Origin: an uncultured Bacteroidales bacterium
Lineage (GTDB): Bacteria; Bacteroidota; Bacteroidia; Bacteroidales; B18-G4
Reading direction: 5' to 3'
Length of the DNA stretch: 63,217 nucleotides
Assembly: GCA_964508895.1 (NCBI GenBank)
Contig: CAZDWF010000003.1
Coordinates: forward strand, 1 to 63,217
This document shows positions 16,865-56,879 of this stretch, in pieces. The translations under genes were made by a program, and so were the position numbers. A model generated the notes under the pieces. It worked only from the letters and a program-made list of their open reading frames with translations. It was not told the origin of the DNA and searched no databases. Each line of letters opens with the position of its first letter. Position 1 is the first letter of the stretch.

Positions 16865-16929
16865 ATCTATATTATTATTTTTGAATTATTATATATGTCC
16901 TTTTTGCACTAAGTATTATTAAAAAGCTA

Positions 16930-23243: not shown

Positions 23244-23254
23244 GAGCTATATCT

Positions 23255-24414: not shown

Positions 24415-24443
24415 ATCTTTTAGCCTGTTTTATTGTTGAATAA

Positions 24444-25454: not shown

Positions 25455-25457
25455 ATC

Positions 25458-26798: not shown

Positions 26799-26833
26799 CC
26801 TGTATATATTGGATTAATATATTACTTAATTTA

Positions 26834-38333: not shown

Positions 38334-38382
38334 TATGTGCACAATTATTAATAAGCAATACCAGGAATAAATTTGTATAATA

Positions 38383-39576
38383 GTGAATCAGAAATTGAGT
38401 GTTACAGAATATCAGAATATATTTCATAAACTCGGAAACTGGATAAAACAAAATGATTATAAGAGTTTTGATGTTTGCGATATAAGCTCCACAAAACTTT
38501 ATTTAACATTAATTGATATTCATAAAAGAAATAAATATGGTAAGTATTTATACTTCCCTTTTGAACAGATAAATAAAAAAGCCCCCTCAACTCTGCGCAA
38601 AATTGCGAACTCAAAAAAGAAGGAATATGCACAAGCATATGCAGTGATATCAAGAGCTTATTCTAATGCATACAAAAAGAATAAAGATAAAGGCTATTTA
38701 GATAATGCAACCCAAGCTATTGAAAAACTATTACCATTAAGGTCTGAAGGATTTGAAAATTATTGCTGGGGACAACCATATGATTGGTATTCAAGAAAGC
38801 TCATACCTTTTAATACTCCACGCGCAACAGTTACATCCCAGGTTGGTTCTGCCCTCCTTGATATATATGAGATCAATAATGATGAAAGATTGCTCAATAT
38901 TGCTAATAGCACGGGGAATTTCTTTATCGAAGACATGGAGATATACAAAGATACTGATGGACATATTTGTTTTCCGTATACTGCAATTGACAATTATAAA
39001 ATCCATAATGCAAGTATGCTTGCTGCAGCATTTTTATACAGGCTTTCCATTTTGACTTCAAATAAAAATTTCCTGGATTATTCCATAAATGCATCTGAAT
39101 TTACCATAAAACATCAAAGGGAAGATGGAGCCTGGCACTATATGGCTCCTCCACACAAAACATTAGGAAAAATAGATAATTATCATACAGGATTTGTTCT
39201 TGAAGCTTTTCTTGATATTAAGAAAGCAGATCCAGACAATTTTCCCTACGATGAAGAGCTGAAAAAAGGCATGAACTTCTATTTACAAAACTTCTTTATT
39301 GATGAGACAATACCCAAAATGACTCCAAAGAAAACCTATCCTCTAGATATACAAAGCTGTGCTCAAAGTATTATCACTCTCGAAGAAGCAAAAATTGTTA
39401 TGGATCTAAATACTAATATTCCAAAAAAGACAACACAATGGACTATTGAGAATTTCTGGGATGATAATAATGATTACTTTTATTATAGGAAATATAAGAG
39501 TGGAAAAATAGATGAAAGTGCTTACATAAGATGGTCTGAATCATGGATGTTAAGAGCATTATCTTACATGATCTAA
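38383..39576 (+). CDS. Hypothetical protein, possibly alpha/alpha-barrel enzyme of glycan metabolism
   Basis: CWGQPYDWYSR ... TSQVGSALLDIYE ... EDGAWHY ... YHTGFVLEAF pattern recalls alpha/alpha toroid proteins found in polysaccharide loci. No confident family call. Confidence 0.3.
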   Translation: MNQKLSVTEYQNIFHKLGNWIKQNDYKSFDVCDISSTKLYLTLIDIHKRNKYGKYLYFPFEQINKKAPSTLRKIANSKKKEYAQAYAVISRAYSNAYKKNKDKGYLDNATQAIEKLLPLRSEGFENYCWGQPYDWYSRKLIPFNTPRATVTSQVGSALLDIYEINNDERLLNIANSTGNFFIEDMEIYKDTDGHICFPYTAIDNYKIHNASMLAAAFLYRLSILTSNKNFLDYSINASEFTIKHQREDGAWHYMAPPHKTLGKIDNYHTGFVLEAFLDIKKADPDNFPYDEELKKGMNFYLQNFFIDETIPKMTPKKTYPLDIQSCAQSIITLEEAKIVMDLNTNIPKKTTQWTIENFWDDNNDYFYYRKYKSGKIDESAYIRWSESWMLRALSYMI

Positions 39577-39583
39577 TCAAATA

Positions 39584-40432
39584 ATGAAAAGAATAATATT
39601 ATCGGTAAATAGCATATATAATAGAATGAGAATTACTAAAAAAGTAAATTCTCTTAAAATCATTGAGTCGTACGTTGATGATGATAAAGCCTTTATTAAA
39701 CTTGATAACGGTCTGCTATTCTATGGTTTAAAAAGTCGGAAAAAAGAGTTCAAATACTATAAACACCTAATCTCAAAAGAAATAAAAAGAATTCTTCCAT
39801 TTGATTGTTACAACCTGGCACTAAATATCATTATTCGATATTATGAAGGCGGCTTGAAATTTGGTGGTCCTGCCAAAGAATTATATTACAAAGTCAAAGA
39901 AGGAGATACTGTTGCTGAAATGGGTGCTTACCTTGGGCATTACACAATGTATCTTGCCTTGAAAGCTGGCAAATCAGGGAAAGTAATTGCCATTGAACCT
40001 ATGCCGGATAACCTGGAATTCCTTAAAAACAATATAAAGCAAAACTCCTTTGAAAATGTCACCATTATACCAAAAGGAGTATGGGATAAAACAGATGAAC
40101 TTGAAATCTTCCAGGAGAAAGACGATCATCAGTCTGCCAGTCTCGTAATAAAAAACGATAACAAGAACAAGATCAAAATCCCTGTTGATTCACTGGATAA
40201 TATTCTCACTCCGTTGGTTGATGACAAAATCGATTTTATGATAATTCAATTAAATGGTGTTGAACTAAAGGCTTTGCAGGGATTAGAAAAGTATAAACCT
40301 AAAAATATTGCAATAGCTGCAAGATATGACAATATTCAAAAGGAGATTGTAAAGCTATTGGATCAAAGAGGTTATAGAACAATTGTAGAATCCGGGAAGT
40401 ATATCTTTGCAGAATTAATAGAAGATGAATAA
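39584..40432 (+). CDS. FkbM family methyltransferase
   Basis: SAM-binding region VAEMGAYLGHYTMYLA ... VIAIEPMPDNLEFLKNNI. Confidence 0.6.
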   Translation: MKRIILSVNSIYNRMRITKKVNSLKIIESYVDDDKAFIKLDNGLLFYGLKSRKKEFKYYKHLISKEIKRILPFDCYNLALNIIIRYYEGGLKFGGPAKELYYKVKEGDTVAEMGAYLGHYTMYLALKAGKSGKVIAIEPMPDNLEFLKNNIKQNSFENVTIIPKGVWDKTDELEIFQEKDDHQSASLVIKNDNKNKIKIPVDSLDNILTPLVDDKIDFMIIQLNGVELKALQGLEKYKPKNIAIAARYDNIQKEIVKLLDQRGYRTIVESGKYIFAELIEDE

Positions 40433-41150
40433 TAAATTGATCAAAATATCTGTGATTGGCAATTCTGTTGCTATCAGGGTGAGGCCTCCGCAAAAACATC
40501 CCGATAACCGGAATTATACTCAATTATTAGAGGAGATTCTTAATAAGGATTTTTCAAAGCAATTAATATTGATAAATAGTATTGCTAATGGTGGTGATAC
40601 AGTTAATGATATGCTATCGAGTCTTGATCATTATGTAAGAAGCTTTCCTGATATATATATCCTCAACATTGGGGTTGTAGATGCTTCTACCAGGGAAATA
40701 CCAAAATGGTTCTTTAATATAATAAACAACAAGAAAGAAGGCTATTGCAGGAACTTCCTCAAACTTCTCTACAATGGGTTTATTAAAAAACACAGAAGAA
40801 AGCTTGTTTTATTATGTGGTAAAAAAACATGGATAAGTAAATTAAGATTTCGAAAAGCTTATACTACATTGGTATCTAATCTTATTAAAGAAACTAATGC
40901 ACGCGTTATTACCTTATCAATCAATAGAGGAAACGCCAGAATTGAGGAAGAAGTTCCTGGTTCTAATAAGAATTACAAACTATATTCCGAGATTATTAAA
41001 GAAGTATCAGAGGAGTTTGGTGCAATCTATATTTTATTAGATGACATAGAAAGTGATGCTCATTACCCTGATGGAGTTCATTTTTCAAAAGAAGGCCATA
41101 AAATTGTGGCTGATAAATTAGCAAGAGTTATTAAACCATTGCTCAAATAA
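40425..41150 (+). CDS. SGNH/GDSL-like hydrolase or acyl-esterase
   Basis: Block I ISVIGNSVA, block III NGGDT, block V DGVHFSKEGH; 8-nt overlap with the upstream gene. Confidence 0.55.
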   Translation: MNNKLIKISVIGNSVAIRVRPPQKHPDNRNYTQLLEEILNKDFSKQLILINSIANGGDTVNDMLSSLDHYVRSFPDIYILNIGVVDASTREIPKWFFNIINNKKEGYCRNFLKLLYNGFIKKHRRKLVLLCGKKTWISKLRFRKAYTTLVSNLIKETNARVITLSINRGNARIEEEVPGSNKNYKLYSEIIKEVSEEFGAIYILLDDIESDAHYPDGVHFSKEGHKIVADKLARVIKPLLK

Positions 41151-41166
41151 TTAAACCATCTCTTTA

Positions 41167-42549
41167 ATGGAAGGTGTACTTAATAAAAATAAAATCAATT
41201 ATATTTTATATCACTTATCATTAATAGTTGATTTAGAGCATCTTAAAAAATATAAGATGCTAAATTTTGTTAATGGAAGTACTTCCAAACAGGCCTCTGA
41301 TCCAGGTATTTATTTTAAGCTCTCAGATAGCAATCTCGATTCAAGTAAAATAAAATCTATAGATGACATTCCCGTGTTATTTCCTTTATCTGACATAAAA
41401 GATGTGTATTATTTTGATAATGGCAATTTATATTTCAGAGATGACCTGTTAAAATCTGCATTTTACTTTTTATCAGGATTTCAGGAATATAATTCAGTGG
41501 AAAAGGATGAGCTGGGAAGGTTTCCATATATGACTTCCATTCAGAACAAACTAAATATAACTCATATTCCTGTTGTAAACTATTACTTCGATTGGATAAA
41601 GAAAGGTATAGAAGAATTTTGCTCAATCCATGAAATTAAGCTTAAACCAAAAACAAGGCTTGAACCTTTCACATTCTTTCTAACACATGATATTGACAGG
41701 ATAAAATTCTATTCATTTAACAATTTGTTGCAAAGGTTAAAAGACATTCTTGGATTAACCCAAAACAGGCAAAGCACAAAAAAATCAATAAAACAGTTTT
41801 TCAGTATATTATTTCATCTGTTAAGGATATGCAACAAGCAGGATCCATGGTGGAATTTTAATTATTTATTGAAACTTGAAGAAAAATATAATGTTAAGTC
41901 AACATTTTTTTTCCTGCATAAAGATATGAAGCACAAAGATTCTTATTATTCTTTTAATGATCATAAAATTAGAACCCTAATACATGAATTATTAACTAAA
42001 AAATTCGATGTAGGAATTCATGGAACTATAAGGTCTGCATCAGATTTGGATAATATGATATGGCAGAAAGATGAAATGGAGAAAATAATTACAGACAAGG
42101 TTTACGGTATAAGGCAACATAATCTTGTTTATATGAATCCGGAAACATCATTTATTCAACAAGATGCTGGGTTTAAGTATGATAGCAGTCTTGGCTTTGC
42201 AGAACATGAAGGATTCAGAAATTCATACTGTATGCCTTTTAAATTATATAATTTTCAGGAAGATAAGGCGTTTGATTGCTGGGAAATTCCTCTAAACGTA
42301 ATGGATGTAACATTATTTCACTACAGGAAACTTGATTTAACAAAAGCAAAAAATAATATTCTGGGGCTTATTTCCGAAATTATGAAGTTCAATGGAATTT
42401 TCACTCTTCTGTGGCATAATAATCACTTTAATGAAGATTTAATTCCAGGCATTACAGACTTTTATGAGACACTCATTAATGATATAATGAATATGGGTCC
42501 TGTTTCATCAACAGGGAAAGAAATTATTTCAAAAATTAATAACTCTTAA
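41167..42549 (+). CDS. Polysaccharide deacetylase-like protein with N-terminal extra domain
   Basis: FFLTHDIDR, GIHGT and GIRQH ... YDSSLGF motifs resemble divergent NodB/CE4-like deacetylases. Confidence 0.45.
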   Translation: MEGVLNKNKINYILYHLSLIVDLEHLKKYKMLNFVNGSTSKQASDPGIYFKLSDSNLDSSKIKSIDDIPVLFPLSDIKDVYYFDNGNLYFRDDLLKSAFYFLSGFQEYNSVEKDELGRFPYMTSIQNKLNITHIPVVNYYFDWIKKGIEEFCSIHEIKLKPKTRLEPFTFFLTHDIDRIKFYSFNNLLQRLKDILGLTQNRQSTKKSIKQFFSILFHLLRICNKQDPWWNFNYLLKLEEKYNVKSTFFFLHKDMKHKDSYYSFNDHKIRTLIHELLTKKFDVGIHGTIRSASDLDNMIWQKDEMEKIITDKVYGIRQHNLVYMNPETSFIQQDAGFKYDSSLGFAEHEGFRNSYCMPFKLYNFQEDKAFDCWEIPLNVMDVTLFHYRKLDLTKAKNNILGLISEIMKFNGIFTLLWHNNHFNEDLIPGITDFYETLINDIMNMGPVSSTGKEIISKINNS

Positions 42550-42562
42550 ATTTAGCTTTAGC

Positions 42563-44074
42563 TTGCTGGATAAGTTAAGACATACAATAAGGCAAACAGC
42601 CATTTATGGAATAGGTAAATTGGGCACCAAACTTATTGGGCTAATATTATTACCTCTTTACACAGATTATTTAACAACATCCCAATATGGTATCCTGTCA
42701 TTGCTGGAAGTAACATCTCAGATTATGATCGGAATACTTGGATTCCGGCTTTCCAATGCTATGATGAGATGGATGGCTGGAGAAAAAGATCCTGAAAAGA
42801 AAAAGACTATTGTATTTACAACCTATCTCTCAACTATTGCTATAGTTCTAATTTCCTGGACATTATTAATCCCGTTTACTGATCAGTTTTCATTATGGTA
42901 TTTTGAATCAAATGAGTTTTCAACCTATTTTCTGATCCTATTCTTGTCAGTTGGTTTTGAGATCCTGAACCATATTACTTTTGACCTTATCAGGATGGCC
43001 GAAAAGGCTGTATTCTTTATTATTATCGTATCTGTAAAGCTTGCTGCAATACTTGGACTTAATATTTACTTTATTATTGCTTTAGAACTTGGTGTTAAGG
43101 GAATTATCCTTAGTATGTTAATAGGAAATCTACTAATGCTGGTGATTTCCATACCATTTATTCTTAAAAGAATTAACCTTCATTATGACAGGATAATATT
43201 CGGTCAGATGTTCCGTTTTGGATTTCCAATAATATTTTCAGGACTATCGGTAATGATATTATCTTTTGCAGACCGATTCATCCTGAAACAATTAAAAGAT
43301 CTTTCAGAAGTGGGGATATATACTACAGGATATAAAATTGCTGGCGTAATTAATGTATTATTATTGCAATCCTTTCAAACTGGCTTTCTCCCTATTGCTT
43401 ATAAAATGTTTGACAGGAAAGATGCGAGCCGTTTCTTTGCAAAAGTGCTCACCTACCTCACCTATGTGTTAATGATTGCAGTATTGGTATTATCATTATT
43501 TTCAAAGGAATTTATAATGCTCTTTATTTCAAATAAAAGCTATTGGAGTGCCTATACTATAGTTCCACTAATAAGCCTGACTTTTCTGATTAAAGGATGG
43601 CAATATGTTTTTGTTCTGGGTTTACACTATTCAAAGAACACTAAGTATATTGCCTACATTGTTTTATTGGCTGTTGGAGTAAATATTGGATTGAACTATT
43701 TATTGATACCTTACTGGGGAATTTATGGTGCAGCTGTAACTTCAATATTCTCAACATTGATAAATGTAATACTGATCTATCGCTACTCTCAAAAATTCTA
43801 TGCAATAAAATATGAATTTTCAAAGCTCATAAAGATTGTAATTATGGGTTTGGCAATCCTGGCTGTATATTATTTTATTAATGACTTAAATATTTACATT
43901 CGCATTCCTGTTAAAGTTATTCTGATAATCTCTTTCCCAATCGGTTTATATTTTATGAATTTCTACGATAAAATTGAAATTGAACGATTCAAGGATTTCC
44001 GGGATACCTGGAGACATCCTGGAAAATGGAAAGAGAATGTTAGCAGACTTAGAAAGTCTAAACTTTCTGATTAG
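42563..44074 (+). CDS. Oligosaccharide flippase (Wzx / MOP superfamily)
   Basis: 503 aa, about 12-14 TM helices, typical polysaccharide biosynthesis protein N-terminus (GKLGTKLIGLILLPLYT); TTG start. Confidence 0.7.
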   Translation: MLDKLRHTIRQTAIYGIGKLGTKLIGLILLPLYTDYLTTSQYGILSLLEVTSQIMIGILGFRLSNAMMRWMAGEKDPEKKKTIVFTTYLSTIAIVLISWTLLIPFTDQFSLWYFESNEFSTYFLILFLSVGFEILNHITFDLIRMAEKAVFFIIIVSVKLAAILGLNIYFIIALELGVKGIILSMLIGNLLMLVISIPFILKRINLHYDRIIFGQMFRFGFPIIFSGLSVMILSFADRFILKQLKDLSEVGIYTTGYKIAGVINVLLLQSFQTGFLPIAYKMFDRKDASRFFAKVLTYLTYVLMIAVLVLSLFSKEFIMLFISNKSYWSAYTIVPLISLTFLIKGWQYVFVLGLHYSKNTKYIAYIVLLAVGVNIGLNYLLIPYWGIYGAAVTSIFSTLINVILIYRYSQKFYAIKYEFSKLIKIVIMGLAILAVYYFINDLNIYIRIPVKVILIISFPIGLYFMNFYDKIEIERFKDFRDTWRHPGKWKENVSRLRKSKLSD

Positions 44075-44131
44075 TACTACATATAAACAAAGTTGAAAAT
44101 GCATTCACTTTGAGGTTATTGTGAAAAGTTA

Positions 44132-44139
44132 TACATTTG
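44132..44139 (+). promoter_or_regulatory. Bacteroidota -7 promoter box TACATTTG
   Basis: Matches TAnnTTTG, 76 nt before the ATG at 44215. Confidence 0.3.
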
Positions 44140-44214
44140 GGGTTGCTTTAAAAGGTCATAGCTTGCGTTAGAAAGATGATGCTATGATTTACACTTAAAT
44201 GCTAAGAATACTCA

Positions 44215-45216
44215 ATGACAGATAAACTAAAAAATATATGTTTTATAGGAGCAGGGAATATTGGCACTTCCCTGGGTAACAGACTTGCATTCAGGAAGAA
44301 CCTGAATATTCAACTTCTCACAATAGAGAAAGATGTTGTTAAGCCTATTAACAAATACCACATAAATCAGAAGTATTTTCCAAAACTTAAGCTTAATAAA
44401 AACTTAAAAGCCACATTAGACCCTCAGGTTCTTACACAAGCACAGGTTATTTTTATAGCTATACCTTCAGGAATAACTGTTAATTATCTTAAAGAGAATT
44501 ATAATTTTATAGAGCAGGATGCTATCCTTGTTAATCTAGCAAAAGGCTTCGCTCCTGATGGAAGAACCATCAATGAATGTCTTATCGACACCTTTCCAAA
44601 TCCTGTATGTTCTTTAAAAGGGCCAACATTCGCAAGAGATATAGTAAACTCCGCTCCCACTGCATTTACTTTCGCTGCAAAAGACAAATCATTATTTCCT
44701 GTATTCAGGTCACTTTTTGACAAAACAGAAATATACCTTGATTTTACTACGGATGTAATTGGAATAGAAATACTAAGTATCCTGAAAAATATTTATGCCA
44801 TAGTAATTGGAATTGTTGATGCTCACTTTAATTCTCCAAACCTGAGGTTTTTAATATTAACCAAGGCATTTAATGAGATGCACAGTATTTTATTATTATT
44901 GAAAGGTGAGAGTGAAACTCTGTTCCACTATTGTGGTTTCGGGGATTTTAGTCTTACAGCATTGAATGATTTAAGCAGAAACAGAACCTTAGGTTTATTG
45001 ATTGGAAAAGGTTTCTTTATTGATGACATTTCAGATAAAGTGGTACTGGAAGGAAAAAATGCTGTAAATGTTATTGTTGACAAGCTTCATAAATTAAATA
45101 AAGACGAATCAGACTTCCCTATTTTATGCGAATTATTTAAAGTATTTAATAATAATTACAACGTATCAAATTTTGTCAATCGTCTTCTTAAGAGAATAGA
45201 TTCCAGGATAGATTAA
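44215..45216 (+). CDS. GpsA-like NAD(P)H-dependent glycerol-3-phosphate dehydrogenase family protein
   Basis: Rossmann motif FIGAGNIGTSLG, LAKGF and KGPTFARDI segments parallel GpsA motifs. Confidence 0.6.
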   Translation: MTDKLKNICFIGAGNIGTSLGNRLAFRKNLNIQLLTIEKDVVKPINKYHINQKYFPKLKLNKNLKATLDPQVLTQAQVIFIAIPSGITVNYLKENYNFIEQDAILVNLAKGFAPDGRTINECLIDTFPNPVCSLKGPTFARDIVNSAPTAFTFAAKDKSLFPVFRSLFDKTEIYLDFTTDVIGIEILSILKNIYAIVIGIVDAHFNSPNLRFLILTKAFNEMHSILLLLKGESETLFHYCGFGDFSLTALNDLSRNRTLGLLIGKGFFIDDISDKVVLEGKNAVNVIVDKLHKLNKDESDFPILCELFKVFNNNYNVSNFVNRLLKRIDSRID

Positions 45217-45223
45217 TCAATTA

Positions 45224-45880
45224 TTGAAAAAACATTTATTGAATATGCAATTTGATAGCAATAATATACTTGTTCTGGCACCTCATACAGATGATGGTGA
45301 ATTAGGCTGCGGCGGCAGTATAGCAAAATATCTTGAAGAAGGTAAAAATGTATATTACGCTGCATTTTCAACAGCTAAAGAATCATTACCAGAAGAATTA
45401 CCCGATAACACTCTGGAAAAGGAAGTTAAGGAAGCAACTAAAAGGTTGGGCATTCCTGAAGAAAACCTTATCATCTTTGGTTTCCAGGTAAGAAAGCTCA
45501 ATTATGAACGTCAGAATGTTTTAGAAGAACTCGTTAAACTAAAGAAAGATATCTTACCAGGAATGGTATTCATGCCATCCCCTAATGATCTGCATCAGGA
45601 TCATTTTACTATTGCCACTGAATGCATGAGGGCATTTAAGGAAACAAGTATACTTGCCTATGAATTACCATGGAATAATATAACTTTTAACACTCAGGCT
45701 TTTGTTACACTGGAAGAAAGACATGTAGAGAAAAAGGTTTATGCTCTTGATGCATATAATTCACAAAAGAAAAGATCTTATCTAAACAAAGAATTCATTT
45801 ACAGCTGGGCAAGAACAAGAGGTGTACAAATCAAAACTAATTTTGCTGAAACATTTGAAGTTATTAGATGGATTATCTAA
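45224..45880 (+). CDS. PIG-L/LmbE family de-N-acetylase
   Basis: APHTDDGELGCGG and HQDH zinc-site motifs; TTG start. Confidence 0.75.
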   Translation: MKKHLLNMQFDSNNILVLAPHTDDGELGCGGSIAKYLEEGKNVYYAAFSTAKESLPEELPDNTLEKEVKEATKRLGIPEENLIIFGFQVRKLNYERQNVLEELVKLKKDILPGMVFMPSPNDLHQDHFTIATECMRAFKETSILAYELPWNNITFNTQAFVTLEERHVEKKVYALDAYNSQKKRSYLNKEFIYSWARTRGVQIKTNFAETFEVIRWII

Positions 45881-45887
45881 TGTAGCT

Positions 45888-46886
45888 ATGTCAAATAAAA
45901 GCTTACAGGATTTTAACAGATTACGCAAAAAGGAGCATTATAAAGATGAATCCCAGGAAAACTACCTTCTTGATCTCAATAAAGTTTTACAGGAGAAAGA
46001 AATTGAAAAGTATTTAGACCTGGAAGAAGAGTATCCAAGTATTTTTGTATTTGGACTGCCAAGATCAGGTACCACATTTATGACTCAGCTCATTGCGCAT
46101 TCTTTTAATATAGGATACATTAATAATTTCATGGCCCGTTTCTGGCTGGCCCCTGTCACAGGAATAAAACTTTCCAATATTATTTACGGGCAAGAAAGCA
46201 ATGCATATTTCGATTCTGATTATGCATCCACGAAAAGCATGACGGATATCCATGAATTTGGTTATTTCTGGAGAAACTGGCTAAAGAAAGACAGCATTCC
46301 GGAAATTATACGGTCAAAAGAGAATGAAGAAATAATTGACTGGGCAGGATTAAAAAAATGCATTCTAAATATCCATAATGCATTTGGAAAAGCCTGGATA
46401 TGCAAGAATATTTTTGGGGCTTATCACATTGAAAAGCTTTCTCAATTATTAAAGAAGTCATTGTTTGTATATATTGAAAGGGATCCTTTGGATAACGCTA
46501 TTTCAATATTGGATGCACGCAAAAAATTCTATTCGGATATAAATTTATGGTGGAGCACAGTCCCTTATGAGTATGAAGACCTTAAAGATCTTCCAGTTAT
46601 GGAACAGATCACCGGCCAGGTACATTATTTAAGAGAGTTCTATGCAAATGAACTTTCAAAACTACCTGATAACCGTTATATGATCATTGATTACAAAGAT
46701 GTAACTACTTCTCCTTACAATACCGTTGAAAAAATCAAAGATAAACTGGATCAGCTAACATCTTATGATAATGAACTCCTTGGCAATGCAAGAATGATTT
46801 CCAGTGAAAATGTTATTTTCAGAACCTACAAAAACAGAGATTCAGAGAAACATATATTTAATATCTTATTAAACAGGTTTAGGTAG
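45888..46886 (+). CDS. Sulfotransferase family protein
   Basis: PAPS-binding loop GLPRSGTTF and YIERDPLDNAIS. I prefer the in-frame ATG at 45888 (8 nt after the PIG-L stop) over the ORF-track start at 45822, which overlaps the PIG-L gene by 59 nt. Confidence 0.65.
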   Translation: MSNKSLQDFNRLRKKEHYKDESQENYLLDLNKVLQEKEIEKYLDLEEEYPSIFVFGLPRSGTTFMTQLIAHSFNIGYINNFMARFWLAPVTGIKLSNIIYGQESNAYFDSDYASTKSMTDIHEFGYFWRNWLKKDSIPEIIRSKENEEIIDWAGLKKCILNIHNAFGKAWICKNIFGAYHIEKLSQLLKKSLFVYIERDPLDNAISILDARKKFYSDINLWWSTVPYEYEDLKDLPVMEQITGQVHYLREFYANELSKLPDNRYMIIDYKDVTTSPYNTVEKIKDKLDQLTSYDNELLGNARMISSENVIFRTYKNRDSEKHIFNILLNRFR

Positions 46887-46899
46887 TATAACCAGTAAG

Positions 46900-47892
46900 T
46901 TAATGCTTCAGAATTTTTTGTTTCCCGATTAAAGTTCCTGATTGATTATAAAGAAGTATAAAATATATTCCAGCTTTGAAGTTTGAAATATTAATTCTGG
47001 AAATATTTGTATAAGTGGCAAGCCTGTTTCCTGAAATAGTATAAAATTCAACCTCCTTAGCATCAGCATTATTAATGTATATTATATCTCTTGCAGGATT
47101 GGGATAAACTGAGATTTGGTTCTCTTTCTCCTTTTCCAGGATTGAAGTAAGCTGCATATTGTATAATTGCCAAACTTCTATTGAATCAAGAGCTCCGGCA
47201 AAAACAATCAGCTCATCAATATCTCCGTTAAATGCACCTTGAACCTGTGAGAAGAAATGATGTGCGCCTATACTAACCCAATCAATGTTTGTATGAAAAT
47301 TGCCAACCTGAATGAATGGTTCAATAATAACCATCTCTGTATCCAGGAACATTCTCATCATATCATCAGTAGTATCACAGGTTATAACATAATGATGCCA
47401 TTCACCATAATCAAAAGATGGATATCTGATTTGAATTGGATAAGGGCTGGGAGGATAATAACCTCTTAAAGAAAACTCAATGAACCCTGTTTGGTCTTCA
47501 GCAGTTAATGCTATTGTTGATCCTGCAGATTGTGAAGCATCATTACATCTTTGTTCAAAGACCATATTATTGCCATTTCCTCCACCCGGACCATCCATTT
47601 TGGCCCATACGGATAAAGTAAATTCCATTACAGTAATAATAGCTGAATCATTATTAAGCTGTATCCTGCTTGAAATACCATCAAAATTATAAGCATTATT
47701 TGGATATCCCAACATGTCGTTCGTTAATGTTGCACCCTCGGATATACCATGATACTCATTTCCGCTAATATCATTCGCATTATTATGAAATGGATAGTAT
47801 GCTATTATACTATCAAATTGAAACTGAGCAATACTAAAGCTATTAAAGAGGATCAACAATAAGCTCAATAAGAGTAAGTTCTTGATTTTCAT
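46900..47892 (-). CDS. LamG/concanavalin-like domain secreted protein with T9SS type A CTD
   Basis: NAYNFDG ... FTLSVWAKMDG LamG-type pattern; CTD ISVYPNPARDIIYI ... GIYFILLYN. Confidence 0.65.
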   Translation of the reverse strand: MKIKNLLLLSLLLILFNSFSIAQFQFDSIIAYYPFHNNANDISGNEYHGISEGATLTNDMLGYPNNAYNFDGISSRIQLNNDSAIITVMEFTLSVWAKMDGPGGGNGNNMVFEQRCNDASQSAGSTIALTAEDQTGFIEFSLRGYYPPSPYPIQIRYPSFDYGEWHHYVITCDTTDDMMRMFLDTEMVIIEPFIQVGNFHTNIDWVSIGAHHFFSQVQGAFNGDIDELIVFAGALDSIEVWQLYNMQLTSILEKEKENQISVYPNPARDIIYINNADAKEVEFYTISGNRLATYTNISRINISNFKAGIYFILLYNQSGTLIGKQKILKH

Positions 47893-48726: not shown

Positions 48727-50475
48727 TTATCTTACAAGAATCAAAGTTCCTGATTTTCTGAAATCTGCACTTATTCCTAATTCATCCTTTGCTTTAAAGT
48801 CGATAATATATACGTATGAACCTGTAGGACATTGCTTTCCATTCATTTCACCATCCCATAAATCAGAAATACTGAAAGACTCGAAAACTTTTGTACCTCT
48901 TTTATTATATATCAGAATATGAAATGAGGAAATACTATTTCCCTTTGGCTCGAACTCATCATTAAGTCCATCTCCATTTGGTGAAAATGCATTAGGTATA
49001 TACAAGCTTGATTTGTATTCACTAATATATACTGTATCAGACAGTGCTACACCAATTTTTTCAACATCAACCCAATATTTACCTCCCTTTGTTACCACAA
49101 AAGTTTGATTATGAGATCCATCTTGCCAAGTATATGTATCAAATCCTGACCCTGCATCAAGAACAATCTTATCTCCAAGAATAAGATTAGTATCAGGACC
49201 AAGAATACTCTCAGGTGGAAACATAATACCTACAAATATGCTATCATATCCATAACCACATTCATTTTCAACCCTAACATGATATATCCCGGTGGTGCTT
49301 ACTGAATAAAATTGGCCAAAACTATGATCCTGCCACAAATAACTTAAATATCCTGAACCAGCATCTAAAATCAATGTATCGTTGTACCAAATTGTAGTGT
49401 CATTTCCCAGAAATACCTGTGGTAAATAATCAAATGATACATAAATAGAATCACTTGAAAAACACATTCCATCTGTAATTATAACCCAATATAATCCAGG
49501 ACTAGTAACTATATAGAATGAGTTGGTTGTACTATCTTGCCATATATATGACACATTAGGCAGTCCAGGATTAAGTATCAAGCTGGCATTCTCACAAATT
49601 GTAGTATCCTTACCAAGATTTACCTGAGGAATATTATTAATTTGAACATAAACTGAATCCATGCAATATTCATTTCCTAATGTAACTTCAACCCAATATA
49701 TTCCTTGGTGGGTTACTATCAAACTATCATTTGTGCTTCCATCCTGCCATAAATAAGTATCATAATTATTCCCCGGACTTAAAACAACAGATGAACCACT
49801 ACATATTGTTGTATCATTTCCCAAAGAGCAGTTCAGTGAACCACCTTGACTGTCGTAGACAATAGTAAGTTTTGGATGGAGATCAGGAATAATATAATCA
49901 CTGGAAGCAAAATCTAAAGCCCTATATTTTTCTTCTGTATTTAGTTTAAGCATGAATCCAAAACTAGAATCAGGATTCAGTATCATATCCTGTACTAATT
50001 CCGTAACATCAATATTTGGATATGACTGATCTATGCTATCGCTTATAGGAAGTATCCCGGGATTATCGGTTGAATAAGGTGGTTGATTATTCCAGGTAAG
50101 AACATGTTCATCCCAATCCTCAAGGATCCTATACAATGAAGATTCATTATCACCATATTGACCTGGAGGATTATTCATCAAATCATCAGCAAAATATAAA
50201 CTTAATGTGGCTTGAAGAATTATATCATCGATTGAAAACATTGAAAGATCAAATTGGATAAAGGACCTGGAAAAGTTCGGATTACCATTCATTGTCCAAG
50301 CATGGGCTGTCAAATCCTCATAATCACCAAGATTGTTATTTGGATTCATAAATTGAATCTTGGAATCTTTGCCAATCTCCGAACCTGGTTGTAATATTAA
50401 AGTATCTTGCGAATGAGAATAACTAATAAAAAATATTAGGATAATAGCAATGGAAAAATTCTTCATATTGACCAT
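48727..50475 (-). CDS. DNRLRE-like domain secreted protein with four about 66-aa repeat modules and T9SS type B (gliding-associated) C-terminal domain
   Basis: N-terminal module shared with the ORFs at 30533 and 50588. Four LG.DTT.C ... Y.WQDGS ... G.YWV modules. C-terminus YIPNAFSPNGDGLNDEF ... WDG. Confidence 0.65.
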   Translation of the reverse strand: MVNMKNFSIAIILIFFISYSHSQDTLILQPGSEIGKDSKIQFMNPNNNLGDYEDLTAHAWTMNGNPNFSRSFIQFDLSMFSIDDIILQATLSLYFADDLMNNPPGQYGDNESSLYRILEDWDEHVLTWNNQPPYSTDNPGILPISDSIDQSYPNIDVTELVQDMILNPDSSFGFMLKLNTEEKYRALDFASSDYIIPDLHPKLTIVYDSQGGSLNCSLGNDTTICSGSSVVLSPGNNYDTYLWQDGSTNDSLIVTHQGIYWVEVTLGNEYCMDSVYVQINNIPQVNLGKDTTICENASLILNPGLPNVSYIWQDSTTNSFYIVTSPGLYWVIITDGMCFSSDSIYVSFDYLPQVFLGNDTTIWYNDTLILDAGSGYLSYLWQDHSFGQFYSVSTTGIYHVRVENECGYGYDSIFVGIMFPPESILGPDTNLILGDKIVLDAGSGFDTYTWQDGSHNQTFVVTKGGKYWVDVEKIGVALSDTVYISEYKSSLYIPNAFSPNGDGLNDEFEPKGNSISSFHILIYNKRGTKVFESFSISDLWDGEMNGKQCPTGSYVYIIDFKAKDELGISADFRKSGTLILVR

Positions 50476-50587: not shown

Positions 50588-51934
50588 TTACTTAATGATT
50601 TGAATTTTTCTACTTTTTGATTTAATTCCATCTGATAAATTTAGCAGATATATTCCTGGTTTAAAACCTGATAAATCAATTTCTTGCAATACATCAATCC
50701 CGAAGTAAATATCCCTATCCAATAAATTTTTCCCCATCATGTCGTGTAATCCAATTCTCAACTTCATACTTATATTACTTCTATTTTTAATGTATATAAT
50801 AATTGATGCAGGATTTGGATAAACTAAAATGTTATCCAGGCTTATCTTTTCTTCCTTTATACTGGTAAGTTCAATCGATTCACATAAAGTATCAACGGAA
50901 CACTCATTATTAACGGTGAGGCAGACATCATATGTCCCATGTGAACCATAATAGTGAAATGGATTTTCCAATATAGTTCCATATCCATCTCCAAAATCCC
51001 AGTAATATGTTAATGCATTGCTGGAAAGGTTTATAAATATTACTGTATCACCTTGTATTAGGTATTGAAATTTTGCTTTTACAAGTGGGCAAACATTTAT
51101 TGAATCACAATATGTGGACTCACCATTTACATTGAACCCTGTTAAACAAACATTATATTTATCATATGAAGTATAATGGTGTATAGGATTTTCTAATGTT
51201 GATGAAAATCCATCTCCGAAATCCCAGTAATAAGTATCAGCATCCACAGATTCATTAGTAAATATTATTGAGTCCCCAAGTCTGTAAAAAGAATACAAAG
51301 GAGATGGTAGTATAGGTGGGAAATAAACAATTTCAAGTTTTGGCCTTAAATCAGAATTTGAATAATCACTGGAAGCAAAACAAATTGTTTTATGAGCAAT
51401 TTCTTCATATAATTTGAACATAATACCAAAATTACTATCTGGATTATGCACTAAGAATTCAATAATATCAGTTACATCTATATCAGGATAATTTTGAAGG
51501 TTATTGGTGCTTTTTGGCAAATTAACCTCATCTAAAGTAGTCGAAGAGGGTTGATTATTCCAGGTTACCTGATCTTCACCCCATGTTTCGGTTACTCGCC
51601 TGATACACCACTCATTCTCACCACTTTGTCCTGGTGGATAATTTGGCAAATCTGATGCAATAAATAATGAAAGTTTTGCTTCAAAAATAATGCTACTAGG
51701 AGGAAGTGCTGATAAATCAAACTCTATAAAGGACCTTGTATAATTAGTATCCGATCCAAGATCAAAAGCATGTGCTGTTATATCAGTACTATATCCCAAA
51801 TTCTGATCAGGACTCATACTTTTCACCTTAGCATCTTTTCCATCAGCAGTACCAGGTTGAATCACAATAGTATCCTGTGAAAAAGCTGAGAGCATAAATA
51901 AAATAAAAAAGGAAACAATAGGTAATCTTTTCAT
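50588..51934 (-). CDS. DNRLRE-like domain secreted protein with two PKD-like domains and T9SS type A CTD
   Basis: N-terminal module RSFIEFDLS ... AKLSLF; two YYWDFGDG PKD motifs; CTD ILVYPNPASIIIYI. Confidence 0.65.
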   Translation of the reverse strand: MKRLPIVSFFILFMLSAFSQDTIVIQPGTADGKDAKVKSMSPDQNLGYSTDITAHAFDLGSDTNYTRSFIEFDLSALPPSSIIFEAKLSLFIASDLPNYPPGQSGENEWCIRRVTETWGEDQVTWNNQPSSTTLDEVNLPKSTNNLQNYPDIDVTDIIEFLVHNPDSNFGIMFKLYEEIAHKTICFASSDYSNSDLRPKLEIVYFPPILPSPLYSFYRLGDSIIFTNESVDADTYYWDFGDGFSSTLENPIHHYTSYDKYNVCLTGFNVNGESTYCDSINVCPLVKAKFQYLIQGDTVIFINLSSNALTYYWDFGDGYGTILENPFHYYGSHGTYDVCLTVNNECSVDTLCESIELTSIKEEKISLDNILVYPNPASIIIYIKNRSNISMKLRIGLHDMMGKNLLDRDIYFGIDVLQEIDLSGFKPGIYLLNLSDGIKSKSRKIQIIK

Positions 51935-51977: not shown

Positions 51978-53279
51978 TCAAATATCATTAATGATACCGG
52001 AGATTTTATTCGCTAAAGCATTTCTTGAATATTTCAAATATACAGGATTTCTGGAATCAAGATTCTTATTCCCTTTCCAATGATTAAATAGTTCAGTCAA
52101 ATATTCTTTGAAAGCACTTTTATTCTCATAATCAATTACTCTGCCAGCCTTGCATTCTTTAATGACATCATTCACATTCCCATCTTCCGGTCCAATGCAG
52201 ATAATTGGTTTTCTGGAGCCTATATAATCAAATATTTTCCCTGATACAATTCCTTTGTTTTTCGGATTCCGTCTTATTGTGGAAAAACAAGCAGTGCTTT
52301 CCATTAAATATTTCACAGACTCTTCATGAGGAACGTATGGAATAAACTCAAGAATGTGGTCAATTTCAAATTTCGCAAACACCTCCCTTACACTATCATC
52401 AATGTTTCCTACAAACCTGAATAATACCGGAACGTCAGGATTATCAGCCATAACTTCATAAAGAGCTTCCACAAAAACATCCATCTTATTGGCATCATTG
52501 GCAAGAGAACCTGTAAAAGTGATCAGGAATTTATCCCTGGGAGGGCTGGAAGGTATATTGAAATCTTCTTCATCAAAACCATTGGGTATTATCTGTATCT
52601 TATCCTGGCTGATCTTCTTACTTTTTTTCTGTAACAATTGTTTTAAAGCATCACTTACAATCGTAATCCTGTCAGCTCTTTCTATTACTTTTCTTTCCAG
52701 GGATGCATCATATTTTTTTGCCAGGGCAGTATGATAAAATGCATCGTAATAAAAAATATCTGTCCAGGGATCGCGAAAATCAGCAATCCAATTAACAGCT
52801 GTTCTTTTTTTCAACTCAAGTCCTGAAAGGTGCACTGATTGAGGCGGACCTGTAGTTATAACCGTATCAATATTATGTTCTGCAATAATTTCCAGGGCTT
52901 TTTTCACTACATAGGGCTTCCACCCTACCCTTGCATCAGGAATGAATAAGTTTCCTCTGATAAAGCGGCTGAATTTCTGTGCAAGTGAAGGATTTGTTTC
53001 ATTATCGAAACTACTATGAGGATATTTCCCTTTACCTATCAACTTTCTGTATATATCGAATATCTCAAAAGTTTTGGTTTTATATACAATTAAATCTTGA
53101 GGTATTTCCTTTTCAAGGGATTTATCTATTACAGGATAGTTTGCTTTCTCAGGATCGACAGTCAGAACAAAGGGCTTTACTCCAAATTCAGGCAGGTATT
53201 TTACAAACTTAAGCCATCGCTGAACACCGGAGCCTCCACTGGGTGGCCAGTAATATGTTATGACCAGTACCCGCTTCAT
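51978..53279 (-). CDS. Glycosyltransferase family 4-like
   Basis: N-terminus VLVITYYWPPSGGSGVQRW; GT-B architecture; its start overlaps the upstream YfhO gene's stop by 4 nt. Confidence 0.65.
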   Translation of the reverse strand: MKRVLVITYYWPPSGGSGVQRWLKFVKYLPEFGVKPFVLTVDPEKANYPVIDKSLEKEIPQDLIVYKTKTFEIFDIYRKLIGKGKYPHSSFDNETNPSLAQKFSRFIRGNLFIPDARVGWKPYVVKKALEIIAEHNIDTVITTGPPQSVHLSGLELKKRTAVNWIADFRDPWTDIFYYDAFYHTALAKKYDASLERKVIERADRITIVSDALKQLLQKKSKKISQDKIQIIPNGFDEEDFNIPSSPPRDKFLITFTGSLANDANKMDVFVEALYEVMADNPDVPVLFRFVGNIDDSVREVFAKFEIDHILEFIPYVPHEESVKYLMESTACFSTIRRNPKNKGIVSGKIFDYIGSRKPIICIGPEDGNVNDVIKECKAGRVIDYENKSAFKEYLTELFNHWKGNKNLDSRNPVYLKYSRNALANKISGIINDI

Positions 53280-55756
53280 TTTTTAGCTTTTAATGCTTTT
53301 AATATCTCATACCCACCAACTCCAACAACAAGTAATATTAATAGCAATGAACTTGCCAGTGAAACAGCTTCTCCCTTTTTATAAATCTCCGGTTCAAATT
53401 TGAATTCTATGGTATGGCTCCCTTCAGGTACCACCATTGCCCTTAGCACATAGTTAACCCTGAAATGAGGATAAAGTTCTCCATCAATATAAGCATTCCA
53501 GCCATCTTTATAATAGATCTCTGAGAAGACAGCAAGCTGATCAGATTTTGTATTTGAAGTATATTTTAGATAGTTAGGCTTATATTCCAGGAAGGAAATG
53601 GCTGCAAGACTGTCATTTGCAATTTTTAATCCGTTTAGCTCATCTTCAAATCTTTTATCAATTATTGCTGTTGTTGCAGGATCAAATCCTGTTAAAGCCA
53701 TGATCTCTTCATCAGCATTATTAACGATCTGGTAATCATCCACTAACCAAACATTTCCTAATGCATTCCTGTTTATTATTGGCTGTGATTGAGGATTTAC
53801 AATAATGTATCTGGTATTCAACATATTCAACACTGGAAGTCCGGCCAATATATTTTCAGCATCCTGCATGGTCTTTGCATTTTGTAAAGCTCGTGAGAAC
53901 TTCTCAATTTCAGGAGATATCTGGTATTCAATTAATTCCTGGTACCTTCCCAGTTTAGCTCCATGGTATCCGCCTATTGATTTATGGAAATAGGGTGTGT
54001 TTCCATCATTAAAAGGACTGACTGACAGATTAAGAACCTTAAAGTTGGGATCTTTATCGTTAAGAATAAAATTATCTGCCACAGTAGGTTGATAAGGTTT
54101 CTCAAGTTTTGATTTCCGGACAAAGTTATCCTGATCAAGATATCTTCTATTCACAGACCACATGTCAGCGAGTATTAATACTCCGAGTATAAGTAAGACA
54201 TAAGTGTAGTTGATCTTCTTAGAGACCCATAACCATATCAAGCCAAATGAAAGACCGATAAAGATCAGTGAACGTAATGAATCCATTCTCAGTATGTATT
54301 TACGATCAACAATCAAAGCATCTATCAGAGGCTTTTGCAGTTGTCCGTCCTGAATTCCATTAAAGTTAAAAAACATGCCAGGCACTAAAATAAACAGCAG
54401 TAAAACAGCTCCAAGAATATAGGCTGCATATTTCATATACTTAAGCAGATCTTTTTTCTCAATATCACCCTTTAATATTTTTGATATTCCAATTATTGCA
54501 AGCAATGGAATGGCAAGTTCGGCCATAACCAGAATAATCGTAACTGCTCTGAATTTGCTGTATCCCGGAACATAGTCCAGGAAGAAATCCGTAAAGACCA
54601 TAAAGTTTTTACCCCAGGATAAAAAGATTGATAAAATAGCGACTGATAATAACCACCATTTATACTTTCCTTTCACAATAAACAATGCCAGCACAAAAAA
54701 GAAGAATACTATAGCGCCAACATATACAGGTCCTGAAGTAAAAGGTTGTGTTCCCCAGTAAACAGGAAGCTGTTTAATATAATTATTCGCCTGTGCAATC
54801 GGAACATTATTATCTCTTAATACCTTATAGAATTCAGAATTCTTTGACAATTCACTGGTTGTGCTACCTCCCATAAAGTCTGGGATAAACAAAGTGAAAG
54901 TCTCTGCAACACCATAACTCCAGGCTGTAACATAATCCCTGCCCAGTCCTGAAGTTTGGTTTGTTTCGTTCATAGTAAGCTCAGATTTTCCACGGGTTGT
55001 ATATTGAGAATGATCAGAAGCTATCCAAAGATTTGTTGCATGAGTTAACACAGCTATAAAGGCTGCTATTAACAGAATACCAAAAGCCTTAAAAAATCTT
55101 GCATAGGTCTTATGTCTGATCGTTTCAACAAGCTCATATATTCCGTAGATAACTACAATTAATAAGAGATAGTAAGTTATCTGAAGGTGATTTGCTTTAA
55201 GTTCAAGGGCAAGGAACAGGGCTGTAAGTATGGCACCTATTATATATTTACCTCTGAATGCCAGTATAATTCCTGCTAAGACCGGGGCCATATAAGCAAT
55301 AGCTACTGCTTTTGTATTATGACCGGCCTCAATTATTACAAAAAAATACGATGAAAAGGCAAAAGCAAACGATCCTATTAAACTTAGCCATGGATTTACC
55401 CTCAGCACTAATAGCAGAATAAAAAAACCAATGAAATAAAGGAAAACATAATCTGCCGGATGAGGTAAACCAAGTCTTATAATTCTATCAACATGAGTTA
55501 TCAGGTTTCCCGGATATTTCACAGAGGTCATATATGCCGGCATCCCTGAGAACATATTGTTAGCCCACAGGGCTTCTTCACCAGTTTCGGTCCTGTAATC
55601 AACAAGTTCTTTCGACATGCCTTTGAAACGTGTGATATCTCCCTGTTGTAATCTTTTCCCCTGAATTACAGGATAGAAAAATGCCAGGCTGAGGATAATA
55701 AATAAAAGAATTGCGACTAAATACGGGGCTAGGTCTTTAAATGAAGGAAATTTCAT
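53276..55756 (-). CDS. YfhO family membrane protein (putative lipid-linked glycosyltransferase)
   Basis: 826 aa. N-terminal multi-TM region with FFYPVIQGKRLQQGDI start typical of YfhO; large C-terminal extracytoplasmic part plus a terminal TM helix. Confidence 0.65.
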   Translation of the reverse strand: MKFPSFKDLAPYLVAILLFIILSLAFFYPVIQGKRLQQGDITRFKGMSKELVDYRTETGEEALWANNMFSGMPAYMTSVKYPGNLITHVDRIIRLGLPHPADYVFLYFIGFFILLLVLRVNPWLSLIGSFAFAFSSYFFVIIEAGHNTKAVAIAYMAPVLAGIILAFRGKYIIGAILTALFLALELKANHLQITYYLLLIVVIYGIYELVETIRHKTYARFFKAFGILLIAAFIAVLTHATNLWIASDHSQYTTRGKSELTMNETNQTSGLGRDYVTAWSYGVAETFTLFIPDFMGGSTTSELSKNSEFYKVLRDNNVPIAQANNYIKQLPVYWGTQPFTSGPVYVGAIVFFFFVLALFIVKGKYKWWLLSVAILSIFLSWGKNFMVFTDFFLDYVPGYSKFRAVTIILVMAELAIPLLAIIGISKILKGDIEKKDLLKYMKYAAYILGAVLLLFILVPGMFFNFNGIQDGQLQKPLIDALIVDRKYILRMDSLRSLIFIGLSFGLIWLWVSKKINYTYVLLILGVLILADMWSVNRRYLDQDNFVRKSKLEKPYQPTVADNFILNDKDPNFKVLNLSVSPFNDGNTPYFHKSIGGYHGAKLGRYQELIEYQISPEIEKFSRALQNAKTMQDAENILAGLPVLNMLNTRYIIVNPQSQPIINRNALGNVWLVDDYQIVNNADEEIMALTGFDPATTAIIDKRFEDELNGLKIANDSLAAISFLEYKPNYLKYTSNTKSDQLAVFSEIYYKDGWNAYIDGELYPHFRVNYVLRAMVVPEGSHTIEFKFEPEIYKKGEAVSLASSLLLILLVVGVGGYEILKALKAKK

Positions 55757-56516: not shown

Positions 56517-56879
56517 TCAACTTCTATTTTCAAGATAACCTAAAAAGCCATACAGCACCTTACCTAATTCAAGTAGTTGATCATGAAGATCTTTATATAG
56601 TTGTAAATCAAGCAATGATTTTGTTTCGTATAAAGTTTCAAGATGATCGATAGTTTCATCTTTACTGGCAATCGCATATATAATAAACCTTATATAATCC
56701 TTTGTATATTTTTTCCTTCCATATCCTTCGACAATATTTGATCTAATTGATTTTGATGATCTTCTTATTTGACTTCCTGTTTCATATAATTCTATACTGG
56801 GCAAATGAAGAGACATATTATGTATTTCAATACTGACTTCCTTTGCTTTTTTCCAAACTTGCAAATCTTTGTAACTCAT
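56517..56879 (-). CDS. Four-helix-bundle protein (23S rRNA intervening-sequence protein / Avd family)
   Basis: 120 aa with [17 protein letters not shown] ... [21 protein letters not shown] ... [16 protein letters not shown] pattern typical of this family. Confidence 0.8.

Follow-up and report, generated by a model that had tools for sequence, protein, structure and literature searches.

We analysed a stretch of 63,217 nt from an uncultured Bacteroidales bacterium (assembly GCA_964508895.1, contig CAZDWF010000003.1, positions 1 to 63,217 of the forward strand; hereafter the window), in which a co-directional run of genes at 37452–46886 closes with a predicted PIG-L de-N-acetylase and, directly behind it, a predicted sulfotransferase dependent on 3'-phosphoadenosine-5'-phosphosulfate (PAPS). 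An original prediction from the sequence alone had asked whether the two genes are a split pair like NDST, the bifunctional N-deacetylase/N-sulfotransferase of animals, in which the sulfotransferase could act on the amine that the deacetylase exposes. What is new in the two genes and their context is a widespread, uncharacterised module made up of GT4, PIG-L, sulfotransferase, WbqC and YfhO genes, and its comparative pattern suggests, tentatively, that the sulfate goes to nitrogen. The members of this module in the window are as follows.

45224–45880, plus strand: predicted PIG-L/LmbE-family (CE14) zinc de-N-acetylase, from Pfam PF02585 and zinc motifs
45888–46886, plus strand: predicted PAPS-dependent sulfotransferase, 332 aa, from Pfam PF13469 and PF00685
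48020–48715, plus strand: WbqC-family protein, 231 aa, from Pfam PF08889 (E=1e-74)
51978–53279, minus strand: GT4 glycosyltransferase, 433 aa, of the orthogroup that accompanies the PIG-L and sulfotransferase genes, from Glyco_transf_4 and Glyco_trans_1_4
53276–55756, minus strand: large membrane glycosyltransferase of the GT-C type, YfhO-like, whose gene overlaps that of the GT4, from PF09586

Read from a TTG, the PIG-L open reading frame (45224–45880) encodes 218 aa; the ATG at 45245 is the probable start, giving 211 aa, as indicated by the database gene call and by homologues of about 210 aa. The protein matches PF02585 at E=1.3e-17 (65 bits; gathering cut-off 28.2), which places it in the family, and its HxDD and HxxH zinc/catalytic motifs are intact (APHTDDGELGCGG and LHQDH, containing PHTDD and HQDH), and both the motifs and the end at 45880 that had been read from the sequence are confirmed. 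PHTDD and HQDH align with the AHPDD and HPDH regions of TT1542, which together with BshB and diacetylchitobiose deacetylase is among the best PDB relatives. We found at least 7861 homologues, the best 120 of which are 65–97% identical to the window protein and about 210 aa long, and the PIG-L orthogroup is much larger than the sulfotransferase family. The highest NCBIfam matches are to the bacillithiol deacetylases BshB1 (64.6 bits against a cut-off of 182.5) and BshB2 (41 bits against 195.25), both under the equivalog cut-offs.

Seven nucleotides separate the PIG-L stop codon from the sulfotransferase ATG. The sulfotransferase matches Pfam PF13469 (Sulfotransfer_3) at E=1.6e-17 (65 bits; cut-off 27) and also PF00685 (Sulfotransfer_1), and carries GLPRSGTTF as its 5'-phosphosulfate loop and YIERDPLDNAISI as its 3'-phosphate motif (RDPLDNAIS; RDPLDxAIS as a pattern), bearing out the earlier identification of such an enzyme immediately after PIG-L. 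In an alignment of 35 homologues, R59, S60, T62, T63, R198 and S206 are invariant, and the motifs PRSGTT, NNxxARFW, HEFGYFW and WWS mark a distinct, well-conserved family. Its invariant DIHEFGYFW stretch contains D120, H122 and E123, which are candidates for the catalytic base. All 35 are about 330 aa long and have N-termini within a few residues of MSNK, which puts the actual start codon of the window gene at the ATG at 45888. Two starts had been entertained for this gene, and the overlapping GTG at 45822 is ruled out by the same N-termini. The family is sharply defined, with 389 close homologues, and a profile search of 1.84 billion proteins returned 1194 cluster representatives at E<1e-30. 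Both genes are almost certainly functional members of their families.

The AlphaFold2 model of the sulfotransferase has a pLDDT of 92.5, and Foldseek matched it to 21 PDB sulfotransferases at E≤1e-3, establishing the fold. The best match was Stf1 of M. tuberculosis (2zq5; E=7.5e-8, TM-score 0.53), and the other nearest folds were TPST1/2, Stf9 and the CurM/OLS sulfotransferase domains; the heparan 3-O-sulfotransferase 3-OST5 ranked 27th (E=1.8e-3). The comparison with the NDST sulfotransferase domain that had been proposed as a check gave no support for kinship: NDST was not among the best 50 Foldseek matches, and neither single-sequence nor profile searches of the PDB with the sulfotransferase retrieved it. 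An NDST-like identity of the sulfotransferase is ruled out by these searches. Similarity to PDB sequences is confined to the PRSGTT loop, in common with TPST, the best sequence match. With Stf1/Stf9 and with TPST, an O-sulfotransferase, the protein has the PAPS-binding fold and the PRSGTT-type loop in common; it is only 12–17% identical to these enzymes, and outside the PAPS core its acceptor-binding parts are family-specific.

The deacetylase, too, departs from NDST. The deacetylase domain of NDST is homologous to fungal Agd3 (CE18/CE4-like) and has a His-His-Asp metal triad; in NDST1 it folds as a (beta/alpha)7 barrel (PMC10864358), whereas the window enzyme is a PIG-L (CE14) protein. Because the folds of both parts are unrelated or not NDST-like, the term "split NDST" fails as a statement of homology and holds as an analogy. 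The likeness lies in the two-step logic, in which a metal-dependent de-N-acetylase precedes a PAPS sulfotransferase, and it extends to two proteins elsewhere in the family, P0363 and P0378, that carry a polysaccharide-deacetylase-like domain N-terminal to the sulfotransferase, and to the homologues of glucuronyl C5-epimerase (PF06662) that stand beside the module in several related loci. The differences are numerous: the window sulfotransferase is unlike the heparan sulfate NST/3-OST group and has an Arg-type PRSGTT loop; the window has two genes 7 nt apart rather than one bifunctional polypeptide; its proteins appear cytoplasmic, whereas NDST is Golgi-luminal; WbqC is an extra, near-obligate partner in the bacterial module; and in the bacterial case a sugar linked to a lipid or nucleotide, instead of a completed heparosan chain, is the probable substrate, the N-sulfation itself being putative.

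We fetched 80 loci from species-representative genomes, with L001–L071 forming the close family. Synteny figures refer to 10-kb flanks of contigs from metagenome-assembled genomes, searched by phmmer with the window proteins against six-frame open reading frames, and high-GC loci yield inflated stop-to-stop frames. PIG-L abuts the sulfotransferase on its upstream side in 28 of the 71 loci, stands just past WbqC on the opposite strand and at most 1.4 kb away in 13, and lies 1.6–7 kb from the sulfotransferase in 7. The pair is therefore kept as neighbours elsewhere, as the original prediction had asked, and its recurrence in dozens of unrelated genomes indicates that the adjacency is not due to chance. 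The module is carried by Bacteroidota, Balneolaceae, Calditrichota, Cloacimonadota, Fidelibacterota, Chloroflexota, Actinomycetota, Spirochaetota and Pseudomonadota. Halalkalibaculum sp. DA3122 (L040) and a Gracilimonas isolate are candidates for carriers that can be cultivated. Our neighbour-joining tree of the sulfotransferase domains is unrooted and shows grouping only.

In 60 of the 61 loci with enough flank, the gene directly 3' of the sulfotransferase is WbqC, and the two often overlap; in L002–L004 WbqC starts 4 nt after the sulfotransferase. This partnership was missed at first because in the window a gene for a type IX secretion (T9SS) cargo protein is inserted between the two. The AlphaFold2 model of WbqC reaches a pLDDT of 93.5. 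Searches of the PDB with it gave no sequence match, a best profile hit that is not significant (E=0.049) and no significant fold by Foldseek (best E=5e-3, TM-score <0.35), and our literature search found no functional work on the family. Its invariant polar residues are HQPN...PW.GYF, D34, R46, K50, T51, SGxGG, Q203 and W205. Besides the sulfotransferase, WbqC accompanies S-adenosylmethionine (SAM) methyltransferases, an Antibiotic_NAT acetyltransferase and a GCV_T-like protein. The family probably takes its name from the E. coli O121 cluster, whose product contains a sugar with an N-acetylglycyl group, a hint that WbqC may handle the amine.

In about half of the 71 loci an orthologue of the window GT4 (>100 bits) is no more than 1.3 kb from the sulfotransferase, in many cases as the gene directly 5' of PIG-L or of the sulfotransferase, and a YfhO–GT4 pair accompanies the module in L002, L003, L008, L014, L022, L026, L045, L050, L060, L086 and others. 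Compact operons in the order GT4, PIG-L, sulfotransferase, WbqC are found in L091, L050, L030, L035 and L008, some of them continuing into a glucuronyl C5-epimerase homologue of family PF06662. Such epimerase homologues stand beside the PIG-L module at 8357–9355 in L091, 4560–5663 in L035, 3955–4950 in L010, 11825–12865 in L030, 6372–7382 in L060 and 4042–5052 in L086; the carriers include Calditrichota and Fidelibacterota, and the set of deacetylase, sulfotransferase and epimerase is reminiscent of heparan sulfate biosynthesis. No C5-epimerase homologue was found in the window.

The same PIG-L orthogroup has other partners. It adjoins an ATP-grasp ligase in L086, L092 and L093, and a small SAM methyltransferase together with WbqC in L085, L089 and L094; the best PDB matches of these methyltransferases, which occupy the place of the sulfotransferase, are phosphoethanolamine and ToxA N-methyltransferases, with similarity confined to the SAM-binding core. 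The ATP-grasp- and methyltransferase-linked PIG-Ls are 64–66% identical to the window enzyme, and most sulfotransferase-linked ones 46–60%. We found no PIG-L clade specific to sulfotransferase-linked loci; many members of that group are more distant than the ATP-grasp- or methyltransferase-linked proteins. In L060, from Fidelibacterota, the operon runs YfhO, GT4, C5-epimerase-like, Asn-synthase-like, PIG-L, sulfotransferase, WbqC, ATP-grasp, and thus equals the operons of L086 and L092 with a sulfotransferase–WbqC pair inserted. PIG-L and GT4 are the constant core of the module, and sulfotransferase–WbqC is a cassette.

Natural fusions extend the range of partners. A DegT sugar aminotransferase is fused to the sulfotransferase family in both orders (P0388, P0401, P0412, P0402), with a WbqC gene in the same cluster as P0388, and in L067 and L061 an inserted DegT separates the sulfotransferase from WbqC. 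A small phosphoglycosyl transferase (Bac_transf) is fused to it in P0400 and P0474, which suggests that the sulfotransferase acts at or near the first lipid-linked sugar. In P0363 and P0378 the N-terminal part is an unannotated domain of about 250 aa, here called X, with the motifs RHD(I/V)D, STY, GHxVGLHF and FHNP; as a separate gene for about 260 aa, X abuts the sulfotransferase in L068 (Leptonemataceae) and L069 (Burkholderiales), neither of which has PIG-L. HHalign relates X to VimE/WbmS-like polysaccharide deacetylases with a probability of 95.8% (E=6.6e-9). Pfam gave X no significant match (Polysacc_deac_1, E=0.19), the PDB gave none to the single sequence and only E≈0.25 to the profile, against peptidoglycan GlcNAc (N-acetylglucosamine) deacetylases, and BLAST of X against the VimE-like protein of the window was insignificant. 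From the one profile-profile match and the resemblance of its motifs, X may be a deacetylase. The P0363 cluster has Pfam domains that fit four Wbp enzymes (WbpA/B/E/D-like) and an Asn-synthase-like gene, and its WbqC gene starts 6 nt after P0363. Three apparently unrelated enzymes predicted to generate amines (PIG-L, VimE-like and DegT) would thus abut or fuse to one sulfotransferase family. Loci L095 and L096 belong to this set of natural multi-domain sulfotransferases.

The remaining genes of the window around the module are given below.

37452–38333, plus strand: second sulfotransferase (Sulfotransfer_3), of another subfamily and the first gene of the run, PF13469 (E=3e-9)
38383–41150, plus strand: unknown 397-aa protein, FkbM-family methyltransferase, and SGNH/GDSL hydrolase or acyltransferase, from Pfam and NCBIfam
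41167–42549, plus strand: DUF7033 and WbmS/VimE-like protein of the polysaccharide-deacetylase fold, the second deacetylase of the cluster, from Pfam DUF7033 and WbmS-like
42563–44074, plus strand: Wzx-type (Polysacc_synt) flippase, from PF01943 and PF13440
44215–45216, plus strand: GpsA-like NAD(P)-dependent dehydrogenase paralogue, directly 5' of PIG-L, from NAD_Gly3P_dh_N and _C
46900–47892, minus strand: T9SS-secreted LamG/ConA-like lectin-fold protein, between the sulfotransferase and WbqC, from Laminin_G_3 and Por_Secre_tail

The closest relative, L081, keeps the gene order of the trio at 38383–41150. The VimE-like protein scores 136.5 bits against NCBIfam VimE (cut-off 440), so that it is related to VimE and not an equivalog, and HHalign relates it to the deacetylase-like domain fused to the sulfotransferase family elsewhere. 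Homologues of its gene and of the sulfotransferase gene at 37452–38333 co-occur in L016, L040 and L070, and the window cluster may hold two deacetylase/sulfotransferase sets. Homologues of the flippase were found in several related loci. The GpsA-like dehydrogenase falls under all GpsA cut-offs (top NCBIfam score 195.9 bits against 257), and its place next to PIG-L is kept only in the Bacteroidales relatives L001–L004 and L081. Its role may be to provide or alter the acceptor (glycerol phosphate, for instance) rather than to serve lipid synthesis. The LamG gene is found also in L081, is absent from L002–L004, and is not part of the conserved module. Two further T9SS cargo genes, with CBM96/disaggregatase-like repeats, lie on the opposite strand at 48727–50475 and 50588–51934. 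In L081 the LamG gene is the sole T9SS cargo gene, and GT4 and YfhO come immediately after WbqC, so that the two CBM96 genes were inserted recently. The abundance of T9SS sorting domains and the closest relatives point to a Bacteroidales genome. Genes for a priming transferase, Wzy or Wzz were not seen in the window cluster, which is therefore not a classical O-antigen locus, and no PAPS-synthesis genes were found in the window.

A GT4 gene beside a PIG-L gene (as in L091, L093, L050 and L030) recalls MshA/MshB of mycothiol, BshA/BshB of bacillithiol and PIG-A/PIG-L of the glycosylphosphatidylinositol anchor, and by analogy with these systems the GT4 here likely adds a GlcNAc-type sugar that PIG-L deacetylates; the pairing implies GlcNAc transfer, deacetylation and then modification of the free amine. 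It differs from them in that its downstream enzyme is no cysteine ligase but a sulfotransferase, together with WbqC, and that the PIG-L protein is not a BshB equivalog. The flippase and GT-C transferase in its context point away from a cytosolic thiol and towards a surface glycan. ArnC/ArnD/ArnT and the three-component CsbB/GtcA/YfhO glycosylation system modify sugars on a lipid carrier: a cytoplasmic sugar on polyprenyl phosphate undergoes deacylation and flipping, and a GT-C enzyme transfers it. The window likewise has YfhO and Wzx, although the glycosyltransferase is GT4 and not GT2 and the deacetylase family differs. No hydrophobic N-terminal stretch is apparent by eye in the window PIG-L, sulfotransferase and WbqC, suggesting that all three are cytoplasmic, where PAPS is. 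Both genes of the pair are almost certainly part of a conserved, apparently cytoplasmic module for the tailoring of surface glycans.

For removal of an N-acetyl group followed by re-functionalisation of the amine there is a precedent in Bacteroidota: in the proposed pathway of Porphyromonas and Tannerella, VimE, a UDP-GlcNAc3NAcA 2-N-deacetylase, frees the amine at C-2 of the Wbp product, and VimA then re-acylates it (PMC7468200). The window encodes a VimE-like protein, and P0363 fuses a VimE/WbmS-like domain to the sulfotransferase in a Wbp-type cluster. The systems differ in that the sulfotransferase stands where the aminoacyl transferase VimA would, and that the VimE-like window protein scores far below the cut-off; VimA and Wbp genes were not found in the window. 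That a bacterial PAPS enzyme can make sulfamates is known from SxtN, the cyanobacterial saxitoxin N-sulfotransferase (PMC7290730), whose acceptor is a small-molecule carbamoyl nitrogen and not a sugar amine. The extracellular polysaccharide of Pontiella is reported to be 75–80% N-sulfated, as judged by indirect dye and nitrous-acid assays, and in the candidate cluster for a sulfated glycosaminoglycan in Pontiella sulfatireligans F21 the neighbours of a PF13469 sulfotransferase are a DegT-type transaminase, yfhO, GT4/GT2 genes and a methyltransferase (PMC7356697). Compared by description, this cluster resembles architectures of the module, with neither PIG-L nor WbqC reported there.

Under N-sulfation, the module would decorate a cell-surface glycan or glycolipid. 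GT4 would link an N-acetyl-hexosamine, probably GlcNAc, to an acceptor, and PIG-L would strip the N-acetyl group to leave a free amine. The sulfotransferase would then move sulfate from PAPS to this amine, forming a sulfamate (a residue of the N-sulfoglucosamine, or GlcNS, type), with WbqC carrying out a still unspecified step coupled to sulfation. Wzx would flip the product, and YfhO would transfer it outside the membrane. From the gene content we infer the order of the steps, the identity of sugar and acceptor, and the choice of nitrogen rather than oxygen.

We put the probability that the sulfotransferase places sulfate on the PIG-L-exposed amine at roughly 45%. The corresponding view of the whole family, as bacterial glycan N-sulfotransferases that form sulfamates on the amino sugars of surface glycans with WbqC and whichever amine-maker is available, is put forward with the same reserve. 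Adjacency, displacement and the fusions with amine-makers make up the comparative evidence, and it lends N-sulfation independent, though not conclusive, support. A number of observations weigh against it. WbqC, not PIG-L, is the tightest partner of the sulfotransferase and a near-obligate one, and it might itself act on the amine. In 23 of the 71 loci, mostly from Actinomycetota and several of them on short contigs, PIG-L was not seen in the fetched flank, and sulfotransferase–WbqC occurs in Actinomycetota with no amine-maker nearby; one such locus, L025, has short-chain dehydrogenases/reductases, a metallo-beta-lactamase-fold protein and a transketolase-like gene as neighbours. In L060 the sulfotransferase–WbqC pair stands between PIG-L and an ATP-grasp ligase, in an operon that L086 and L092 have without the pair, so that the sulfotransferase is no simple substitute for an amine-acylating enzyme. 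Within the window cluster, the presence of two deacetylases and two sulfotransferases makes the pairings ambiguous. The nearest structural relatives, Stf1, TPST and CurM, are all classed as O-sulfotransferases, in the case of Stf1 provisionally, and the fold does not tell N- from O-sulfation. Finally, the characterised sulfotransferases that act on bacterial carbohydrates, NodH, Stf0 and KpsS among them, are O-specific (PMC11625862).

The fold relatives, the O-specificity of the known bacterial enzymes and the Actinomycetota loci all favour an O-sulfotransferase working in the same module, as does the joint presence of ATP-grasp ligase and sulfotransferase in L060 and L005. Sulfate would then be esterified to a hydroxyl, whether on the sugar deacetylated by PIG-L, on a residue next to it or on a new acyl group, and the PIG-L amine would stay free (cationic) or be re-acylated, possibly by WbqC or the ATP-grasp enzyme. 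We regard this as a serious possibility, if still a doubtful one. It leaves unexplained why three unrelated amine-makers abut or fuse to the sulfotransferase rather than to WbqC, and the deacetylase–sulfotransferase fusion follows the two-step domain logic of NDST. The sulfated nitrogen could also be another amine, either the alpha-amine of an amino acid that WbqC or an ATP-grasp ligase attaches, or a 3- or 4-amino group made by DegT, with PIG-L working in parallel. The DegT–sulfotransferase fusions, the DegT genes between sulfotransferase and WbqC in L067 and L061, the ATP-grasp ligase beside the sulfotransferase in L060, and the N-modifying enzymes found with WbqC elsewhere (SAM methyltransferase, Antibiotic_NAT N-acetyltransferase, GCV_T) are all consistent with this; we consider it unlikely for the window, where a search aimed at DegT detected no homologue and PIG-L lies only 7 nt from the sulfotransferase, in an order that recurs in 28 loci. 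The original prediction had also allowed that PIG-L might act on a small-molecule thiol precursor, as in bacillithiol or mycothiol synthesis, with the adjacency incidental. The best NCBIfam matches, BshB1 and BshB2, and the BshA/BshB logic of a GT4 with a PIG-L point that way, but the scores lie far under the equivalog cut-offs, no BshC-like gene was seen, and in many phyla the two genes stay adjacent in the company of glycan genes (Wzx, GT4, YfhO, C5-epimerase-like and Asn-synthase-like), making this alternative very improbable.

To our knowledge, animal NDST is the sole enzyme established to put sulfate on the nitrogen of sugars. Our literature search found no description of a bacterial pair of PIG-L and sulfotransferase, and none of a bacterial glycan N-sulfotransferase. 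N-sulfated hexosamine polymers have been reported, without an enzyme, from the Pontiella polysaccharide, aerobic granular sludge and anammox granules, and a paper of 2020 states that prokaryote sulfotransferases acting on glycosaminoglycans were not known (PMC7356697). If N-sulfation is correct, the proteins described here would be the candidate first family of bacterial glycan N-sulfotransferases, and a convergent, soluble and prokaryote-native counterpart of NDST across Bacteroidota, Calditrichota, Balneolaceae, Fidelibacterota, Chloroflexota, Actinomycetota and others. They could then provide a genetic basis for the N-sulfated, glycosaminoglycan-like polymers of marine isolates and wastewater granules. 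In the bioengineering of heparin, bacterial expression of animal NDST is described as the key bottleneck, and artificial fusions have been built (PMC13353177); those who aim to make heparin in microbes might take an interest in a soluble bacterial pair of deacetylase and N-sulfotransferase, or else in the naturally fused proteins P0363 and P0378. Even with O-sulfation, the analysis defines a widespread glycan-tailoring module and gives a first functional handle on the WbqC family.

Three features of the window lie apart from the module. A small gene at 56517–56879, between YfhO and an M20 peptidase, belongs to the "23S rRNA intervening sequence protein" family (PF05635). At 14993–18345, a tyrosine-decarboxylase-like pyridoxal-phosphate enzyme stands beside an amino-acid permease, a typical pair for amino-acid decarboxylation and antiport. 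An Rnf-type operon for an ion-translocating ferredoxin:NAD oxidoreductase (RnfB/C/D/G/E/A-like) occupies 22671–27742 and fits an anaerobic Bacteroidales host.

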